Shown: positions 27,791-48,734 of the stretch, in pieces
Layout of the letters: each line of letters starts with the position of its first letter
Position numbering within the stretch: the stretch's first letter is position 1
Source: an uncultured virus (IMG/VR IMGVR_UViG_3300049489_000201)
Lineage: Duplodnaviria > Heunggongvirae > Uroviricota > Caudoviricetes
Strand: one strand, 5' to 3'
DNA: 55,090 bases
IMG/VR virus record: IMGVR_UViG_3300049489_000201
Program-made: the position numbers and the translations under genes
Notes under the pieces: generated by a model
What the model was told of the DNA's origin: nothing
Seen by the model: only the letters and a program-made list of their open reading frames with translations
Database searches by the model: none

Positions 27791-27869
27791 GGGATGAAAG
27801 GCAAACTGGTAGAGCCGCCAGTCTTATAAACTGGGAATACGATTGTGGGTTCAAGTCCCACTCATCCTA
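27791..27869 (+). tRNA. tRNA-Ile(TAT)
   Basis: GGGATGA/TCATCCT acceptor; CCAGT-CTTATAA-ACTGG anticodon arm; 10-nt variable region. Confidence 0.8.
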
Positions 27870-28007
27870 CGGTAGTCCACCTCACCTTCGGGTGCCCAAA
27901 GACAGGCTAGTTAGCCATAAGAGTAAAAACGCAAAGGGCGGGGTTGTCCACAGCGTTTTCTGTCAGGTGTGGACGAGATAGTAAACGTAAACCCCGCCTA
28001 AGCGCGT

Positions 28008-29114: not shown

Positions 29115-29143
29115 TTGACATGTGCAGGGGCTAGTGGTATGAT
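29115..29143 (+). promoter_or_regulatory. Promoter embedded in a 12-bp inverted repeat
   Basis: TTGACA-N17-TATGAT with extended TG. Confidence 0.7.
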
Positions 29144-29207
29144 CTATCCATCAAGAGTTACAAGCGTTGGTCAAACGGCTTGGCTCGATACAGAAGGAAG
29201 TAAAACA

Positions 29208-30053
29208 ATGACCGTCTACCTTGTGGGTTCTCTAGACGGAGAACCCATTACTTTTGCCCCTAAGCAGGGGCTCTACTCGGACAACACGCCCTGGATGAAG
29301 GGCTACCCTCCGAAGGGGATGCAGATCGATGATGTATTCATCATGCAGTCCTCACTGCAAGACTTTGTTGCATCTATGATGTATGTTCGTGCAGCGCTTA
29401 ACACAATGACAGAAAAGACCCGACTGGTCATCCCATTTTATCCAGGTGCTCGCCAAGATCACCCAAGTACGATTGGTGATGTTCTGGGCACAAAGGGCTT
29501 TGTTACTCAGTGGGTGAATGAATTAGAGCCGTTCTTTGCTGAAATTGTCGTTTTTGACATGCATTCTGAGCGACTCAACCCGCGCAGGCTGCGTAACATC
29601 ACGCCAGCAGAAATCATTGCTGCCAATCCTGGGTTCAACCCGACTCCTGGGTACTATGATACGATCATCGCTCCCGACCATGGTGCAACGGCCAGGGCTG
29701 AGGAAGTGGGCGCTCTGTTCCACACACCAGTGATCGTAGCCGATAAGATCCGTGACCTGTCTAACGGACGTATCACGCACTACGAAATCGATACGTCACA
29801 GACAGAAATGAAAAAAGTACTTGTCGTTGACGATATTTGTGACGGCGGGGCGACATTCGAAATCCTTGCAGATTCTCTGCCGATAGGAACAGAGCGCCAC
29901 CTATTCGTCACACACGGACTATTCAGTCGCGGAACAGATAATTTACTTTCATGGTACGACCGCATCATCACAACCAATAGCGTTTACCGCGAAAGCGGCC
30001 ACAAGCGCATTTCAGTCATCGACCTTTTCCCAGGAGTGAGTTTTAATGTTTAA
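29208..30053 (+). CDS. Ribose-phosphate pyrophosphokinase-like protein (Adps-like)
   Basis: PFYPGARQD, D.HS, APD.GA..RA, VVDDICDGGATF, VTHGLFS. Confidence 0.9.
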   Translation: MTVYLVGSLDGEPITFAPKQGLYSDNTPWMKGYPPKGMQIDDVFIMQSSLQDFVASMMYVRAALNTMTEKTRLVIPFYPGARQDHPSTIGDVLGTKGFVTQWVNELEPFFAEIVVFDMHSERLNPRRLRNITPAEIIAANPGFNPTPGYYDTIIAPDHGATARAEEVGALFHTPVIVADKIRDLSNGRITHYEIDTSQTEMKKVLVVDDICDGGATFEILADSLPIGTERHLFVTHGLFSRGTDNLLSWYDRIITTNSVYRESGHKRISVIDLFPGVSFNV

Positions 30054-31479
30054 CCCTACGACCCTTATCGACGGATACAAGACCGATCACCGTCGACAGT
30101 ACCCCGACAAGACGGAGTACGTATATAGCAATTGGACCCCACGCGGATCGCGCGTGCCAGGAGTAGAGCGAGTCACGCTGTTCGGATTGCAGTATTTCCT
30201 CGACCGCTACCTCATGGACGAATTCTACGAGTTCTTCTCGGGCGACGTTGATATTGCCTGTAAGCGCTACGAGCGTCGCATGAATGGCTACCTTGGCCCT
30301 AACAACATTGGCACCGACCATATCCGTGCGCTGCACGAACTTGGTTACCTACCGCTGGAAATCTGTGCTATTCCTGAGGGTAGCGATGTTCCCCTGCGTG
30401 TGCCTATGCTGACCATTACAAACACGCACCCCGATTTCGGGTGGCTAGTCAACTACATGGAAACTCTGCTGTCCGCACAGTTGTGGCTTCCTTGTACCAG
30501 TGCAACAACCGCTAAGCATTTTCGCAAGCGTTTGGATTACTGGGCTCGTCGTACGGGAACCGACCAGGCGTTTGTTGATTGGCAGGGTCACGACTTCTCG
30601 TTCCGTGGAATGTCTGGCGTCGAGGCTGCTGCGCTTTCTGGCGCTGGTCACCTAATTTCGTTCACAGGAACAGATACAATTCCTGCGCTCGATCTGATTG
30701 AAGATTACTACGCATCATCCGACTTTATCGGTGGATCTGTCGCAGCAACCGAGCACTCGGTTATGTGCGCGGGCGGATCAGAGTCCGAGGGTGAAACATT
30801 CGACCGACTAATGGATCTATACCCAAGTGGTATTCTGTCAGTTGTTTCGGACACCTGGGATTTCTGGGGCGTTCTTACAGATATTCTGCCTGCGCGCAAG
30901 GACAAGATTCTTGCTCGTGACGGCAAACTGGTCATTCGACCTGACTCGGGCGACCCTGTTAAGATCGTTGCTGGTGACCCTGACGCCGTTCCTGGTACGC
31001 CAGAATACTACGGCGCGGTGGAAATGCTGTGGAAGACCTTCGGCGGAACCACAACGGACGCTGGATACAAGTTGCTAGACAGCCACATCGGAGTTATTTA
31101 TGGAGATAGCATTACTTACGAGCGCGGCGATCAGATCCTCGCAGAACTCGCGCGAAAGGGCTTTGCTTCTGGTAACGTTGTATTTGGTATCGGTAGTTAC
31201 ACTTACCAGTACGTCACCCGTGACACCTACGGATTTGCCATGAAGGCTACGTGGGTTCAGATCAACGGCGAAGGTATGGCTATTTTCAAGGATCCGAAGA
31301 CTGATAATGGCCTCAAAAAGTCCGCAAAGGGACGCTTGGCTGTCATCAACGACGAAGTTATTGATGAGGCTACGCCTGAGCAAGAGGCGGTGTCGCAGTT
31401 GCAGCCCGTGTGGCGTAATGGCGAGTTCGTCAACCGTCCGCTGGGCTTTGACGAGGTTCGCAGAAACGCTAGACAGTGA
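30046..31479 (+). CDS. Nicotinamide phosphoribosyltransferase-like protein (NadV/Namat-like)
   Basis: DGYK..H..QYP, HDF.FRG, ATEHSVM, SVVSDTWD, IRPDSGDP, KKSAKG. Confidence 0.95.
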   Translation: MFNPTTLIDGYKTDHRRQYPDKTEYVYSNWTPRGSRVPGVERVTLFGLQYFLDRYLMDEFYEFFSGDVDIACKRYERRMNGYLGPNNIGTDHIRALHELGYLPLEICAIPEGSDVPLRVPMLTITNTHPDFGWLVNYMETLLSAQLWLPCTSATTAKHFRKRLDYWARRTGTDQAFVDWQGHDFSFRGMSGVEAAALSGAGHLISFTGTDTIPALDLIEDYYASSDFIGGSVAATEHSVMCAGGSESEGETFDRLMDLYPSGILSVVSDTWDFWGVLTDILPARKDKILARDGKLVIRPDSGDPVKIVAGDPDAVPGTPEYYGAVEMLWKTFGGTTTDAGYKLLDSHIGVIYGDSITYERGDQILAELARKGFASGNVVFGIGSYTYQYVTRDTYGFAMKATWVQINGEGMAIFKDPKTDNGLKKSAKGRLAVINDEVIDEATPEQEAVSQLQPVWRNGEFVNRPLGFDEVRRNARQ

Positions 31480-35328: not shown

Positions 35329-35666
35329 GGGGACGCAAGGTATCGATCTTGTGTTTGAGGTATAAAGTGGCAGTCGGTTCGGTTGACCTAATCAACCAAC
35401 AAAATAATAAATGCAAACGAAGATGCAGTCGTAGCCGAGGCTATGGCTAATATCGACGCTGAGTACGAGGCGCTTTGCGCCAAGTACGCACTGGCAACAG
35501 TATAAGCGTCCGAGCGGCAACTGCTTAGGAACAGAAAGTTGCAAACCGCCTGAGAGGGCACCCTGTAATGCCAGCACTAAAGTAATACCGGGGGCGGATA
35601 CCCATGACTGTATCTACAGAATATCGATTAACAAGACACGCGGGTTCGACTCCCGCCGTCTCCACC
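35329..35666 (+). ncRNA. ssrA: tmRNA
   Basis: GGGGACG/CGTCTCC-A acceptor with G3-U70; T-arm; resume codon after ATAAAT; tag ORF 35413-35505. Confidence 0.93.
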
Positions 35667-37859: not shown

Positions 37860-37903
37860 CTCTGAACTTATTGCTAAGATATCAGATGTGCTATACTGGT
37901 GGC

Positions 37904-38329
37904 ATGGAAACAAAACGATGCCCAAAGTGCGATGAGTTTAAGATGCGCGAACAATTCACGACGAAGCGCGGAGGCTTTGGGTCGTATTGTAAGCAATGTA
38001 AGTTAGAGTATGACAAGCAATACTACGCAAAAAACGACTCACGCCAGAAGTGGCAACGAGAGCAAAACAAAAAAGTAGCCAAGAGAAATCAAGACTACGT
38101 ATGGAACTATCTACTAAATCATCCATGTGTTGATTGTGGCGAGTCTGACCCAGTAGTTCTAGAGTTTGACCACCAGAAAGATAAAATTTCTGGAGTGGGA
38201 AAAATGTCTAGCAAGCAAGTTTCTATTTCTAAATTGCAAGCAGAGATAGATAAATGTCAGATTAGGTGTTGCAATTGTCATCGTCGTAAAACAGCAAGAA
38301 CATTAGGATGGCACAGTTATTCAAGATAA
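37904..38329 (+). CDS. HNH homing endonuclease-like protein
   Basis: CxxC...CxxC, PC.DCG.....LEFDH, EI.KC...C.NCHR; leaderless. Confidence 0.88.
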   Translation: METKRCPKCDEFKMREQFTTKRGGFGSYCKQCKLEYDKQYYAKNDSRQKWQREQNKKVAKRNQDYVWNYLLNHPCVDCGESDPVVLEFDHQKDKISGVGKMSSKQVSISKLQAEIDKCQIRCCNCHRRKTARTLGWHSYSR

Positions 38330-38562: not shown

Positions 38563-38964
38563 ATGAAGGAATGCTCGGCGTGCCACAATAATTTCTCGAC
38601 GGAGCAGTTTGCCGCGAGATCATCTATGTGCAAGCCATGTCATAATTCATACACAAGAGATCACTACCAAAAGAACAAGCAATACTATAAGAATAAGGCC
38701 AGGGCGCGCGAAGCACAGTCGAGAGCCCTAATTTCAGAATACAAAGCATCTACACCCTGTGCAGACTGCGGACTTTCGTACCCCGCCGTGTGTATGGATT
38801 TTGATCACCTGAGCGACGACAAGTTATTCAACATTGCTAGTCGCGCGAAGAGTGGATTTTCTAAAAGTGTAGTTGCTGAAATGCAGAAGTGTGAGTTGGT
38901 TTGTGCTAACTGCCATCGACTGCGAACACAAATGCGGGTATCGCCTAACGGATATGGCACTTGA
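38563..38964 (+). CDS. HNH homing endonuclease-like protein
   Basis: PCADCG.....MDFDH, KCELVCANCHR; paralog of 37904. Confidence 0.88.
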   Translation: MKECSACHNNFSTEQFAARSSMCKPCHNSYTRDHYQKNKQYYKNKARAREAQSRALISEYKASTPCADCGLSYPAVCMDFDHLSDDKLFNIASRAKSGFSKSVVAEMQKCELVCANCHRLRTQMRVSPNGYGT

Positions 38965-44378: not shown

Positions 44379-44452
44379 GGGCCTATAGTTTAGCGGTTAA
44401 AACCCCAGTCTTTTAAACTGTGAGAGCCTCGGTTCGAATCCGAGTGGGCCTA
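44379..44452 (+). tRNA. tRNA-Lys(TTT)
   Basis: CAGT-CTTTTAA-ACTG. Confidence 0.88.
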
Positions 44453-44465
44453 CGTAAGAAACAAT

Positions 44466-44558
44466 GGCAGGGCAAGCCGAATTTTGGACGACGGCACTCG
44501 CCTTGAAAGCGAGCGAGCGTAACAGCCTTGAGGGTTCGAAACCACTCTCCTGCCGCCA
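44466..44558 (+). tRNA. tRNA-Ser(TGA)
   Basis: CTCGC-CTTGAAA-GCGAG; long variable arm; GCCA end. Confidence 0.85.
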
Positions 44559-44590: not shown

Positions 44591-45046
44591 ATGGATAAAG
44601 ACTGTAAAAAGTGCGGCGAGACAAAAAATGTAACAGATTTTCATCTGGCAGATTCAAAAACTAGACGCCGCCGCAATCAGTGCAAGGCGTGTCAAGCAAA
44701 GTATATTTCGGCGTATAAAAATGCTGATCCAGAAGCAATGCGTGATCGCTGGCGCAAAGCAAGCAGGAAATACTATAAAACAGAAAACAGAAAAAACAAA
44801 ACGCTCAGACAATATAGTCTTGATGAGTCTACGTACAACGAAATGTACGACTCACAAAACGGCGAATGCGCGATATGTCATCGCTCTATAACCTTAGTGG
44901 TAGATCATTGCCACACAAAAGGGGTTGTCCGTGGCCTACTTTGCAACATGTGCAATGTTGCATTAGGTTGTATGCAGGATGACGTTGACAGGTTGCGCGC
45001 GGCGGTGCTATACTTAGAACTTGCAGGCGGTAGGTTGGATATCTAG
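44591..45046 (+). CDS. Endonuclease VII-family homing endonuclease
   Basis: Q.G.CAIC....L.VDHCH..G.VRGLLC..CN..LG; leaderless. Confidence 0.9.
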   Translation: MDKDCKKCGETKNVTDFHLADSKTRRRRNQCKACQAKYISAYKNADPEAMRDRWRKASRKYYKTENRKNKTLRQYSLDESTYNEMYDSQNGECAICHRSITLVVDHCHTKGVVRGLLCNMCNVALGCMQDDVDRLRAAVLYLELAGGRLDI

Positions 45047-45101
45047 TCAAGTCTCATAAACTTGAAATAAATGCGGTTCGATTCTCGCAGCCCTGCTACC
45101 A
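45022..45101 (+). tRNA. tRNA-Met(CAT), atypical
   Basis: TCAAGT-CTCATAA-ACTTGA; GCAGG/CCTGC; ACCA end. Confidence 0.7.
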
Positions 45102-45163
45102 CTTAACATGAGGAGCAAAATGAACGACGGCTGATCCTTCAACATACGTTGGAGGTGATACAA

Positions 45164-45328
45164 ATGCCAGGACCGAATTCTGCTCCGAATGGAGACGTTG
45201 GTCTGATTCGCGGCCACGCACAAGAACGTTTTGTGTGGTGCGATATCTGCCACAAGATTCTACCGGCACGAGTTGACGGCGCAAAGCACCGCAACTTGCG
45301 AACGGGCAAGACGAAACTTAATAACTAA
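45164..45328 (+). CDS. Small protein, 54 aa with CxxC (absent from ORF track)
   Basis: GGAGGTGA RBS; MPGPNSAPNGDVG...WCDICH. Confidence 0.6.
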   Translation: MPGPNSAPNGDVGLIRGHAQERFVWCDICHKILPARVDGAKHRNLRTGKTKLNN

Positions 45329-45329
45329 A

Positions 45330-46080
45330 TAGCATTAAAACAGGCATGGCTGATATGCATACGTGAGTATGCGAAAGGTGTGTGACAATCACCGCCCATT
45401 GGGTAATCCATGCAATCCGAGACTACAACGAGTTCAGCAACAATGGACCGGGGTGGCGTAAGTTCGGTGGGCAACGGAAAGTTCTGAGCCCTCCCCTCCA
45501 CGCAGGAGGATAGCCGATCAAAACGAGCGCTATTGGTAGGAAGGAAGGAACAGAAGTCCGAGGCGTCAACCAAGGGCGGGTTCCATGAAGCAGCAAAAGT
45601 GGTGTGGCGACATCATAAGTAGCAGCAGAGATTGAGAGTACCTGACAAGGAAATCATATCGAGGTAGTGGAGCATTCTGTGGGACAAAATCTCACGGACC
45701 TTCTAGGGAAGCGCTTCCTCCGTCTTACACGTATTGATTAATGGTAAATCAATTGGCATTTAACCAATGAATACAGGTTCGAATCCTGTTACAAAGCAAA
45801 AGACTTCCCTTGTTCGTGTTCGAAAGCGCCTTAATGCTTGGCCCTCCGGGGAACCAAGCGCGATCCTAGCCGCAAGCGAAGATTGTTCCATCGCCAGTAA
45901 TGCAGTCAAGAGGCTTGCTACCTCTGGGCGAAGTAAAAACGGTGGAGTGGAATGCGAATATAAAGAGTGGTAGGCTATACCGACCAGGCGTGACAGTTAC
46001 CATGGGGACATGGTGGAAACGACGGGAAACAATAATCCGTCAAGAGACTGTCAAGAGCGGGAGTATTCTCATCCCAATCA
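45330..46080 (+). ncRNA. GOLLD-like large non-coding RNA (boundaries approximate)
   Basis: About 750 nt purine-rich with no credible ORF, inside a tRNA array; 3' motifs AAGCAAAAG, CGAAAG..CTTAAT, GTGGA...AATAATCC..CAA and GTATTCTCA resemble GOLLD as recalled. Confidence 0.75.
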
Positions 46081-46087
46081 CCATTTT

Positions 46088-46164
46088 GCATGTGTAGTGT
46101 TTAACGGTCAGCACATCAGTCTTCCAAACTGAGGGTATGGGTTCGAATCCCGTTACATGCTCCA
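46088..46164 (+). tRNA. tRNA-Gly(TCC)
   Basis: TCAGT-CTTCCAA-ACTGA; U73-CCA. Confidence 0.92.
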
Positions 46165-46185
46165 TCTAGTCTTACGGAGGCTTTT

Positions 46186-46554
46186 ATGAAGTCGGACTAC
46201 AATTACAGTGGTATCATCCGGAGGGATTTCAGGCAGTCGCACGACGAGCCAGAAGTCCCTCGTTGGCGTAAAAAAGCCAAGCGCCACGTAGACAAGTCCC
46301 GCTGCAAGCACGAATACAGCGATTGGGCACCGAGAAACTGGAAGTACCCACAGCCGCCCATTCTAAGAACTAAGTCGCGGAGCGACGGTTACAAAACTGA
46401 GTCGCGTACGTACTTTGACTACGAGTACCGTGCTTGCCGACTATGTGGAAAGCACCAGTCTCGCCACCGCCAGGTCACAAAGTTCAAGCATTTCCACTGG
46501 GACAAAATGTTCTTCGAAAACGAATACACTACCGAGTGGAAGACTCGCTGGTAA
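46186..46554 (+). CDS. Basic hypothetical protein
   Basis: GGAGG RBS; C.H...C..CG. Confidence 0.7.
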   Translation: MKSDYNYSGIIRRDFRQSHDEPEVPRWRKKAKRHVDKSRCKHEYSDWAPRNWKYPQPPILRTKSRSDGYKTESRTYFDYEYRACRLCGKHQSRHRQVTKFKHFHWDKMFFENEYTTEWKTRW

Positions 46555-46598: not shown

Positions 46599-48734
46599 AT
46601 GCCAACTGTAAATATTTCGCTAGCGGACTCCACAGGAAATGTTGTAACAACTGATATTTCCTACTCAATCAGCGCCCCCGCCTTTCCTGAATTTATTGCG
46701 GGCGAAGTAAAGCCGATAGGCTATTACGATGACCCAGCCACTAGAAACATCGGCCCACGAGTTGCCGACTTCGCATCGCTCACGCCAATTTATGGTGACG
46801 TTATTATTGGTGCGGGTGAGGTAGTAGAGTTCAAGCGTATCTACGGTCGGGTTACTTTCACTGGCAAGGGAACGCTACGCGACTGCATCGTCCATGGCCC
46901 AACGCAGGCACAGATTGCCACGTTCACAGGAAATTATAACGCGGCGATTGTCAACGGCAACTATAACGGCTACGGATCGACAATTGAATGGGTTTTGATC
47001 GACGGCCACGGCTTTGAGAATGTCTGGACTGACGGTATCCGTGGCAACAACTTCACGCTACGATATTCTGAAATCACCCGAGTTTCTGATGGATTCGGTG
47101 GCGCATCTGGCTCTCAGCACGGCCCGACGCTTATTGAGAATAGCCGTATCCACAACGGCTTCTACACCGCCTGGCTTAACCCAGCCACAGGTCTTGGCTA
47201 CCCAGGATTCCCAACCACTCCGTCTGACCGTCGTTGTCATAATGACGGTGTGCAGATTCAAGGCTGGCGCGGATACACAATCCGTGGAAACTATATCGGT
47301 GGTGGCCGCGCCGTTGGAATAACGTCCACAACAAAACAAAACAACAGAGATTATCTAAATCCTGCTCACCAGCCAACTATTGCGGCGGTAGACGCAGCAG
47401 ACGATATGGCTAATGCCGCGCTAATGATTCAAAACAACAGCGGAATGCTGGCATTCACTGGCGCACTTATCGAAAAGAACTGGCTTGCTGGTGGTGATGC
47501 TGTTGTCAATTTCTCAGCATCCTCGACCTACGGCGACGACCTGAGTGCAGTCACATTACGAAACAACCGCTTCATCCGACAGTCGTTGTTCGGATCCAGC
47601 GATGGTCTTGGTATTTACAAGAGCACTAACGCCAAGCCAATACTATCCGGAAATGTATGGGATAACGATAATACACCAGTTGTTATCACACTAAATACTG
47701 AGACGTTCACGCTCGGCGTCCACCGCCCAACGCCAGACAATACCTTTGTTGGCACGGGCTTGACAACTGTAGTTGGCGATATCACTACGACAGCCGCAGG
47801 ACAGATCATCGAGAACAAGGACGTATTCGGCTTCATCAACGTGTTGCACGCAAACGTCATTATCCGAAATTGCCGTGTCCGAGGTCGTGATACTGGACCT
47901 CTATATGTTATCGGTGGCCTTACGCTACCAGGTACACCGTCTGGAACGCCGTCTGGATCTGGCGCATATGCGCGAGCATTTCCTGCAAATGGTCAGCGTT
48001 GCCTTATCAACGGAGACAGCACAGCAGCCGCAGGATTGATTGTAGAGCGCTGTATGCTAAAGCCAGATTATCCTGCATGGTGGCTTATGGGTGTTTATGC
48101 TCGCAACGCTACCGTAACTCGCTGTGATATCAGTAACGTAGGCGACGGCATCGAAGTTCGTGGTGGTGCCTGCACCATCACCGGCAATTACATTCACGAT
48201 CTTATTTTGTTCGACTGTGACTACGACCAGCGCAATTCAAGTCCTGCGTGGTGGTCGCACAACGATGGTGTAATGGTACAAGGTGGATCCGGAACAGTTA
48301 TTCGTGGTAATTTCTTCGACATGAAGATGACCGGAGCACGCACGAGTGTTATGGCAGCGGCTGGATATGCTGATCTACAGTGGGGTGCCGGTGTTACAGT
48401 TGCGGCAACTCAGTCTGCGGTGAATAACTTGACAGTGGATAAAAACTGGTTCAAGGGTGGTGCCGCCTGCTTCCAGGCAAACCAACTAAATACAGCAGCC
48501 GGGTGGACGGGAGCCAGCGACGTGATTGGAACCATCACTGGTAACCGCGTCAGTCACGACCAGCATGAGGTTCCTGTGTCATCGACCTACCAGATCCGTT
48601 ATGCAAACGCGGCGATGATCACCAACAACACGGGCAACGTTTGGGATGGCGATCCATCTGTGGTAGCATGGAACCCAGCCAAGCCTGGTACAGCACTCAC
48701 GGTGGGCTTCACGGGCGGTATCCGCATCCCTTGA
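46599..48734 (+). CDS. Tandem right-handed beta-helix (pectin-lyase-like) protein
   Basis: 711 aa; duplicated HNDGV..QG...IRGN and I..NW..GG motifs; leaderless. Confidence 0.78.
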   Translation: MPTVNISLADSTGNVVTTDISYSISAPAFPEFIAGEVKPIGYYDDPATRNIGPRVADFASLTPIYGDVIIGAGEVVEFKRIYGRVTFTGKGTLRDCIVHGPTQAQIATFTGNYNAAIVNGNYNGYGSTIEWVLIDGHGFENVWTDGIRGNNFTLRYSEITRVSDGFGGASGSQHGPTLIENSRIHNGFYTAWLNPATGLGYPGFPTTPSDRRCHNDGVQIQGWRGYTIRGNYIGGGRAVGITSTTKQNNRDYLNPAHQPTIAAVDAADDMANAALMIQNNSGMLAFTGALIEKNWLAGGDAVVNFSASSTYGDDLSAVTLRNNRFIRQSLFGSSDGLGIYKSTNAKPILSGNVWDNDNTPVVITLNTETFTLGVHRPTPDNTFVGTGLTTVVGDITTTAAGQIIENKDVFGFINVLHANVIIRNCRVRGRDTGPLYVIGGLTLPGTPSGTPSGSGAYARAFPANGQRCLINGDSTAAAGLIVERCMLKPDYPAWWLMGVYARNATVTRCDISNVGDGIEVRGGACTITGNYIHDLILFDCDYDQRNSSPAWWSHNDGVMVQGGSGTVIRGNFFDMKMTGARTSVMAAAGYADLQWGAGVTVAATQSAVNNLTVDKNWFKGGAACFQANQLNTAAGWTGASDVIGTITGNRVSHDQHEVPVSSTYQIRYANAAMITNNTGNVWDGDPSVVAWNPAKPGTALTVGFTGGIRIP

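Follow-up and report, generated by a model that had tools for sequence, protein, structure and literature searches.

A tRNA-shaped module in the linker of a phage GOLLD RNA appears to be kept for its shape and not for its anticodon

The DNA analysed here (the window) is a stretch of 55,090 nucleotides from an uncultured virus (IMG/VR record IMGVR_UViG_3300049489_000201). PHROG matches to tail genes, DnaB helicase, primase, DnaE, terminase and NAD-salvage genes identify it as a phage fragment, and the similarity of its DnaE to those of Streptomyces phages (~50% identity, e.g., Wakanda and BillNye) suggests an actinobacterial host. ARAGORN called 28 genes, comprising 27 tRNAs and one tmRNA, and the GOLLD RNA considered below is set in this phage tRNA island, in a fragment with terminase, tail and DnaE genes. 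The tmRNA (35329-35666, +) is predicted to encode a tag peptide that, at 30 residues, is unusually long, a tRNA-Ile (27791-27870, +) carries the rare TAT anticodon, and three HNH or endonuclease VII genes lie within the tRNA array (37871-38329, 38563-38964 and 44591-45046). Adjacent genes for ribose-phosphate pyrophosphokinase and nicotinamide phosphoribosyltransferase (29115-31479, +) form a pair that we take to be a match to the phage NAD-rebuilding counter-defence pathway.

The GOLLD region is ordered as a promoter-like site, an atypical tRNA with a CAT anticodon, a 54-codon ORF, the GOLLD RNA and a tRNA-Gly (Table 1). The promoter-like site sits within the endonuclease VII ORF 44591-45046, just upstream of the CAT tRNA; three such sites occur in the region, with 2.4 expected from shuffles. 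The CAT tRNA overlaps the end of the same ORF and has apparent bulges in its acceptor and T stems; for this interval there was no ARAGORN call and no Rfam match at the cut-off. In the closest relative among the matches listed (locus L204), its homologue stands directly before the GOLLD RNA, with the same anticodon loop and with compensatory changes, and a tRNA with a TCC anticodon follows the GOLLD RNA as in the window. Given this arrangement in L204, trimming of the flanking tRNAs could conceivably free the GOLLD RNA from a longer transcript. The 54-codon ORF (45164-45328, +) has a weak match to PHROG 4670 (E 1e-4), and L204 has none at the corresponding place. A 711-codon ORF without a PHROG match (46599-48734, +) follows the GOLLD RNA and the tRNA-Gly. 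Between the tRNA-Lys and the endonuclease ORF, a long-arm tRNA-like sequence with a Ser-type TGA loop and a T loop was seen by eye (44480-44557, +) and was reported neither by ARAGORN nor by Rfam at the cut-off.

Table 1. Features of the GOLLD region, in coordinates of the window.
Feature	Position	Strand	Basis or remark
tRNA-Lys(TTT)	44379..44453	+	ordinary member of the array; ARAGORN, Rfam
Promoter-like site	44985..45014	+	sigma-70-type, extended -10, 11/12 consensus letters; consensus match only
Atypical tRNA, CAT anticodon, encoded CCA	45023..45101	+	Met-like; upstream of GOLLD
GOLLD RNA, whole, ~750 nt	45324..46075	+	Rfam, relatives' alignment, RNA-library contigs; 5' end about 45324-45350
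Last helix of GOLLD 5' domain	45660..45719	+	start of Rfam model; bulged strand 45705-45711 inside
Linker-closing long-range helix, 5' strand	45705..45711	+	pairs with 45804-45810, 7 bp in the window
tRNA-like module in linker	45731..45792	+	D, anticodon and T arms with 3-bp acceptor stub
5' acceptor-like strand	45731-33	+	sequence reading
U8/U9	45734-35	+	sequence reading
D arm	45736-50	+	4 bp, GG in loop
A26	45751	+	sequence reading
Anticodon arm	45752-68	+	5 bp
Anticodon-like loop	45757..45763	+	C32 A33 TTT A37 A38; A33 at 45758
T arm	45773-89	+	5 bp, TTCGAAT loop
3' acceptor-like strand	45790-92	+	followed by AAAGCAAAAG, 45793-802
AAAGCAAAAG motif, opening the 3' domain	45793..45802	+	Rfam consensus; directly after acceptor stub
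Conserved GOLLD 3' domain	45793..46075	+	Rfam, relatives
Linker-closing long-range helix, 3' strand	45804..45810	+	pairs with 45705-45711
tRNA-Gly(TCC)	46088..46164	+	ARAGORN and Rfam; directly downstream of GOLLD

The Rfam GOLLD model (RF02032), which spans only the last ~416 nt of the RNA, matches 45660-46075 over its complete length (model positions 1-416; 218 bits against a cut-off of 150; E 2e-60), and the GOLLD identity proposed in a first-pass annotation is thereby upheld. The 5' domain aligns with four relatives (L204, L221, L219 and L231) from ~45324. The RNA follows the known GOLLD plan of a conserved 3' domain, a less conserved 5' domain and a variable linker between them. This linker is closed by a long-range helix that differs in sequence from lineage to lineage and covaries over 84 GOLLDs, averaging 7.25 bp for strands of the same RNA and 4.92 for crossed strands. 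The AAAGCAAAAG motif was found in GOLLDs both with and without the module described below. A blastn search of cultured phages with the GOLLD RNA gave a single weak match of 76 nt, and the Y RNA family (YrlA-type) had no Rfam match in the window at the cut-off, nor to E 5 in 45050-46200. Fold prediction for the whole GOLLD RNA gave z -2.1 and did not recover the cloverleaf that we describe in its linker.

Within the linker lies a tRNA-like module that has the D/T elbow consensus and the 4/5/5-bp arms of a tRNA, with a variable loop of 4 nt. Its three arms are where the first-pass annotation had placed them, as a recheck of the coordinates confirmed. The Rfam tRNA match (43.4 bits, cut-off 29) covers model positions 5-66 only and thus bears out the acceptor of 3 bp, merging into the large RNA, that had been described; ARAGORN made no call for the module. 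The 7-bp acceptor stem and NCCA end of a tRNA are absent, the 3 bp being followed by the GOLLD motif, and U33 is absent, with an A at its place. Given the 3-bp acceptor, the lack of a CCA end, A33 and the conserved GOLLD sequence on the flanks, charging of the module is very unlikely, in agreement with the earlier description of a non-chargeable domain accompanied by a normal tRNA-Lys(TTT) elsewhere in the array. When the letters of the 92-nt linker were shuffled, 0/2000 sequences reached the cloverleaf score of 26.5 given by our parser and 2/2000 reached 22. Folding energy does not single the cloverleaf out (z -0.65 and z -0.03), and the predicted ensemble weight of the exact cloverleaf is low (0.0004), which is common when AU-rich tRNAs are folded without their modifications.

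Contigs of four of the 24 listed sequencing runs were compared with the window, including RNA runs X3 and X12, metatranscriptomes from different studies. A 647-nt contig from X3 is identical to 45350-45996, and a 633-nt variant contig from X12 covers 45347-45956; both bridge the module on either side. Around the module, the X12 variant departs from the window on the acceptor-side flanks, with five changes at 45725-45730 and an extra base after 45792, and agrees with it throughout 45731-45792. Such contigs stand for unbroken molecules in RNA libraries, possibly DNA, and carry no information on strand, ends, level or absence of excision. The two long RNA contigs start at 45347-45350 without loose ends, and a contig from DNA run X2 also starts at 45348. 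Neither RNA run gave a contig over the ORFs beside the GOLLD RNA, a gap that proves nothing. Other GOLLD relatives, whose contigs align with the window's GOLLD RNA in conserved parts only, were present in X3 (records 17, 18 and 20) and X12 (records 5 and 6).

Four productive pattern scans for homologues returned at least 353 loci, and a scan of viral contigs with a 3'-end pattern gave no match. The T-loop-pattern scan yielded at least 100 loci and 29 GOLLDs, all with the module by selection; the broad scan at least 101 loci, with 57 GOLLDs among the matches listed, four of them with the module; a further pattern scan 32 loci and 27 GOLLDs, 22 with the module; and a scan of a genome collection, mostly noise, at least 120 loci, with two GOLLDs among the matches listed, one with the module. 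Twenty loci hand-picked from the T-loop-pattern scan were all recognised by the Rfam GOLLD model at E < 0.001 (nine above the cut-off), and 19 of the 20 had a tRNA match in the linker, the module of L010 falling below threshold. An HMM of the 3' domain matched 118 of 354 sequences, of which two below 25 bits were dropped. The module was found at the same place in 35 of the 86 distinct GOLLD linkers among the matches listed, in 32 distinct forms, and scores of the cloverleaf parser were bimodal (modules 22-26.5, other linkers <=21.5). Real tRNAs from the same loci served as the control: 114 distinct short-arm tRNAs out of 172 ARAGORN calls, excluding 26 calls that were the module itself, and the remainder as duplicates, long-armed or unparsed.

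The elbow of the module proved at least as uniform as that of the control tRNAs. A14 was present in 32/32 listed modules (103/114 real tRNAs), the G18G19 pair of letters in 31/32 (109/114) and G53-C61 in 32/32 (113/114); C56, R57 and A58 were found in 32/32 modules among the matches listed, and at R26 and in the T loop the modules matched or exceeded real tRNAs. R37, in the anticodon loop, was likewise kept in 32/32 (111/114). Some of the agreement in the T loop and the stems comes from the method, because the parser requires a portion of the T-loop consensus and of the stem pairs and one scan pattern contained the T loop; the anticodon and acceptor results are free of this effect. As the T-loop-pattern scan selected on the T loop, the count was repeated on 19 modules found by patterns without it, and T54, C56, R57, A58, G53-C61, A14 and R37 were all present in 19/19, with U33 in 14/19, a full acceptor in 3/19 and TTT in none.

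Other positions are less well kept. U33 was retained in 24/32 listed modules versus 108/114 real tRNAs (Fisher p 0.003), Y32 in 23/32 versus 110/114 (p 0.0002) and the full 7-bp acceptor in 4/32 versus 68/114 (p 2e-6), these p values being nominal and uncorrected for relatedness among rows. An A34 other than in ACG was found in 6/28 seven-nt loops of listed modules versus 1/111 in real tRNAs, and 4/32 listed modules have 8-nt anticodon loops. The 28 seven-nt loops among the matches listed hold 19 different triplets, with TTT once and CTT in three modules, and the entropy at positions 34-36 is near-maximal (1.7-1.9 bits). The acceptor has 0-1 contiguous bp in 8/32 listed modules and a G+C fraction of 0.31, versus 0.63 in real tRNAs; CCA stands at the tail in 4/32. 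Since 6-7 of the 7 acceptor positions still pair in 17/32 listed modules, and own strands pair better than crossed ones (4.75 versus 2.46), the acceptor is weakened but still present, and RNase P could act on some of the members.

Twelve hand-chosen close pairs were used to follow divergence and pairing. Across these, the anticodon loop (0.41) diverged like the linker before (0.39) and after it (0.37), versus 0.14 for the T loop and 0.10 for the D stem, and changes in the D, anticodon and T stems comprised 32 compensatory, four one-sided and six broken pairs. A hypervariable anticodon, as in an arms race, was not seen in these pairs. Compared with L204, all three stems of the window's module differ by compensatory pairs and the D and T loops are identical; the module anticodon loop differs at 4/7 positions (ATTTGGA in L204, triplet TTG), whereas the flanking real tRNAs retain their anticodon loops. 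These patterns indicate purifying selection on shape, with the elbow (D and T loops), the three stems and the form of the anticodon loop, in which purine 37 is invariant and U33 usual, being kept; the triplet and a full acceptor stem are not.

The body of the window's module is 58% identical to that of its tRNA-Lys(TTT), at rank 45 of 114 with a median of 57%, and by similarity this tRNA is not the source of the module. An isotype of origin was not assignable in this way (leave-one-out accuracy 59/114, with one Lys in the reference set). A kissing-loop role for the anticodon loop was considered and gave no signal (longest complement 5.22 in the own GOLLD, 5.09 in others). Palindromes of 4 nt were present in the loop of 8/32 listed modules, versus 4- or 6-nt ones in 15/114 real tRNAs, a weak difference, and by eye the window's loop, read as its reverse complement, does not yield the canonical anticodon loop that loop inversion would give.

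Occurrence of the module was patchy. On a tree of 76 3' domains, 10 of the 86 having been left out as short or identical, its distribution needs five changes, at least four of them forced by well-supported branches; gains and losses are indistinguishable because the tree is unrooted. L222 differs from L029 and L062 by only ~0.01 changes per site in the 3' domain and carries a dissimilar module, and the close 3' domains of L010 and L214 do likewise. These comparisons indicate that the module has been gained, lost or swapped repeatedly, and the near-identical 3' domains with unlike modules suggest exchange of the linker as a cassette between GOLLDs. In L220 of the same clade, a single hairpin resembling an anticodon arm is all that is left of the module, and in L219 and L231 a plain G+C hairpin takes its place. 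Flanking tRNAs were more numerous at loci with the module than at loci without it (mean 2.85 vs 0.98), and at least one was present at 21/27 and 19/40 of these loci, respectively.

Among cultured phages, a mycobacteriophage GOLLD (L206), identical to those of Aziz and GenevaB15, matched 32 of 50,697 phage records, all of them Mycobacterium phages; Estes and Aziz belong to subcluster M2 (PMC7953290). GenBank features under these matches are tRNA-Ser, -Leu, -Gln or -OTHER, a hypothetical protein, or nothing. The tRNA-Leu annotated in Estes is the module, and the other tRNA features under the matches presumably are as well. The linker of the cultured phage Nanosmite has no module, which is therefore dispensable for at least this phage; with only 4/57 GOLLDs listed in the broad scan carrying it, any role of the module would be accessory. 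ARAGORN labels for the module spanned 12 different isotypes or were undetermined in 26 loci, so that the isotype label is incidental, and the labels given in GenBank and reviews (Ser, Leu, Gln, Phe, OTHER) probably arise as artefacts of annotation and make phage tRNA counts too high.

We consider it moderately probable that the module serves, inside the GOLLD cage, as an optional handle of tRNA shape that is tethered and codon-blind. Its fold sits in the linker that joins the 5' domain to the 3' domain, with the long-range helix clamping both ends, and would stay within the long RNA, neither charged nor decoding. If GOLLD oligomerises here like the solved ones, ~10-14 copies would point into the cage, where a partner may recognise the tRNA shape, at the elbow and down the D/anticodon stack, and not the codon. 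The Lys anticodon of the window's module is then an accident of drift. As partner we tentatively favour the ribosome, through its tRNA sites or the L1 stalk on the elbow, because a ribosome pull-down by GOLLD has been reported and what is kept belongs to the D/anticodon stack and not to the acceptor/T stack; proteins that modify tRNA or bind it otherwise would be the next candidates. A bolder and rather unlikely extension is that cages with 10-14 inward codon-blind tRNA mimics capture ribosomes or subunits via the tRNA sites, the linker being an exchangeable cargo-adaptor cassette swapped by recombination. Phages would by this means store, stall or reserve translation machinery.

The handle has to be weighed against other readings. 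The module may be a self-contained stabilising fold or a slowly decaying relic, in which a captured array tRNA protects the AU-rich linker by its compact fold; a stable fold could be selected without any partner. Its patchiness, with at least 4-5 gains or losses, its absence from 51 of the 86 distinct linkers listed and from Nanosmite, the substitute hairpins of L219/L231 and L220, and the richer flanking tRNAs at module loci (2.85 vs 0.98) would all fit. The elbow letters exposed at the surface, the lengths of the arms and purine 37 are nevertheless conserved across deep branches, beyond any obvious need for stability, and an unstructured linker suffices for many GOLLDs, which makes this reading unlikely, if reasonable. 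An improbable one is that the module is a processing signal or stored pre-tRNA, at which RNase P or RNase Z would cut the GOLLD RNA, or from which a tRNA would be freed on cage opening, as in the "inhibited storage" idea of PMC12990946. Both enzymes do read the elbow (PMC4810234, PMC4919913), and 17/32 listed modules keep 6-7 acceptor pairs and 4/32 a CCA at the tail. RNase P, however, measures the acceptor/T stack (PMC4919913), which is short-stacked here on 3 bp, and the acceptor is down to 0-1 contiguous bp in 8/32 listed modules; the product would have a non-canonical loop in several of them (U33 lost in 8/32, 8 nt in 4/32, A34 in 6/28). The RNA-library contigs bridge the module, and Northern blots in M. 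aubagnense are reported to show no separate signal for a pseudo-tRNA (PMC6582537).

Phage tRNA arrays have been tied to tRNA-targeting defence (PMC10264068), and the module might accordingly act as a codon-blind sink for host nucleases or modifying toxins that attack tRNAs, with anticodon arms swapped to match hosts. The unlike modules on near-identical 3' domains (L222 vs L029/L062; L010 vs L214) and the partly kept shape of the anticodon loop would agree with such a sink, but the loop changes no faster than free linker and thus gives no sign of diversifying selection, PMC10264068 and PMC11464382 describe resistant replacement tRNAs and not decoys, and the linker lies within a closed cage (PMC12286853); we regard a sink as doubtful. 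Far less probable still is the specific proposal of the first-pass annotation, a tRNA-Lys mimic displayed as a decoy for Lys-specific anticodon nucleases of the PrrC, RloC or AriB type. The window's TTT followed by A37 and A38, the CTT of three other listed modules and the role of tRNA-Lys as a known target of PrrC and AriB (PMC10264068, PMC11464382) would support it. The Lys identity does not hold in the comparison, however, with TTT in 1/32 listed modules, CTT in three, TTG in the closest relative, 19 triplets in 28 seven-nt loops and a body that is not Lys-like against the sole Lys tRNA of the reference set; the decoy loses its basis with a triplet that is not kept and a loop that diverges like free linker. 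Changes in the anticodon stem-loop let T5 tRNA-Lys escape AriB (PMC11464382), so A33 should lower recognition, whereas a decoy would have to be recognised. "Displayed" is itself doubtful with the linker placed inside the cage by cryo-EM (PMC12286853), and "disabled" is misleading, since purifying selection acts on the shape.

Among the parts of GOLLD, the linker alone is known to face the cage interior. Our comparison narrows the role of the embedded tRNA in that its partner should read shape and not codon or amino acid. The handle is testable, as cultured M. smegmatis phages carry different modules and Nanosmite none, and these natural variants make a ready laboratory system.

That tRNAs and pseudo-tRNAs occur in GOLLD linkers is already published, and the window is an ordinary member of this group. 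The env-38 GOLLD forms a 14-mer nanocage with its linker inside, described as disordered, and the same study mentions that tRNAs sometimes occur in the linker and cites the ribosome pull-down by GOLLD (Kretsch et al., PMC12286853). The window's RNA resembles env-38 in Rfam family, conserved 3' domain, variable 5' domain, linker, phage tRNA-array setting and position downstream of a CAT-anticodon tRNA; it differs in that its linker holds a cloverleaf. GOLLD has also been described as a marker of tRNA clusters (PMC9569102). For a M. aubagnense GOLLD with an internal pseudo-tRNA, Northern analysis is reported to detect GOLLD and not the pseudo-tRNA separately (PMC6582537), and a "tRNA-Phe" has been placed in J13/15 of a Mycolicibacterium GOLLD (Morgado et al. 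2020, as cited in PMC12990946, which also puts forward the idea of "inhibited storage"). Both elements correspond in position and anatomy to the window's module. The GOLLD of plasmid pCBMA213_1 (L356) is 65% identical to that of the window over 97% of the query, with the modules aligned; its module, in which the anticodon loop has 8 nt and includes GAA, the acceptor is short and an ACCA runs into the GOLLD motif, is probably that "tRNA-Phe". Where the mycobacterial reports name an isotype or a pseudo-tRNA, the comparison here shows the label to be incidental. Our literature search found no paper that tells conserved from variable parts of the embedded tRNA, although the supplements of Kretsch et al. 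and PMC6582537 may hold a linker analysis, and none on elbow elements of tRNA type in the RNAs of phages.

Nuclease-resistant phage tRNAs that restore translation after attack on the anticodon (PMC10264068), such as T5 tRNA-Lys against PARIS (PMC11464382), share with the module the phage tRNA-array context and an altered anticodon stem-loop, but are complete, whereas the module is without a full acceptor, a free CCA end and a kept triplet. Readers of the elbow and its mimics, including viral tRNA-like structures, have been reviewed (PMC4810234). With these structures, the module would share a near-perfect D/T elbow placed in a larger RNA and engaging the tRNA-binding machinery of the host. The tRNA-like structure of the plant virus TYMV is 3'-terminal and chargeable; the module of the window is by contrast internal and tethered at both ends, with an anticodon arm whose triplet is free to vary.
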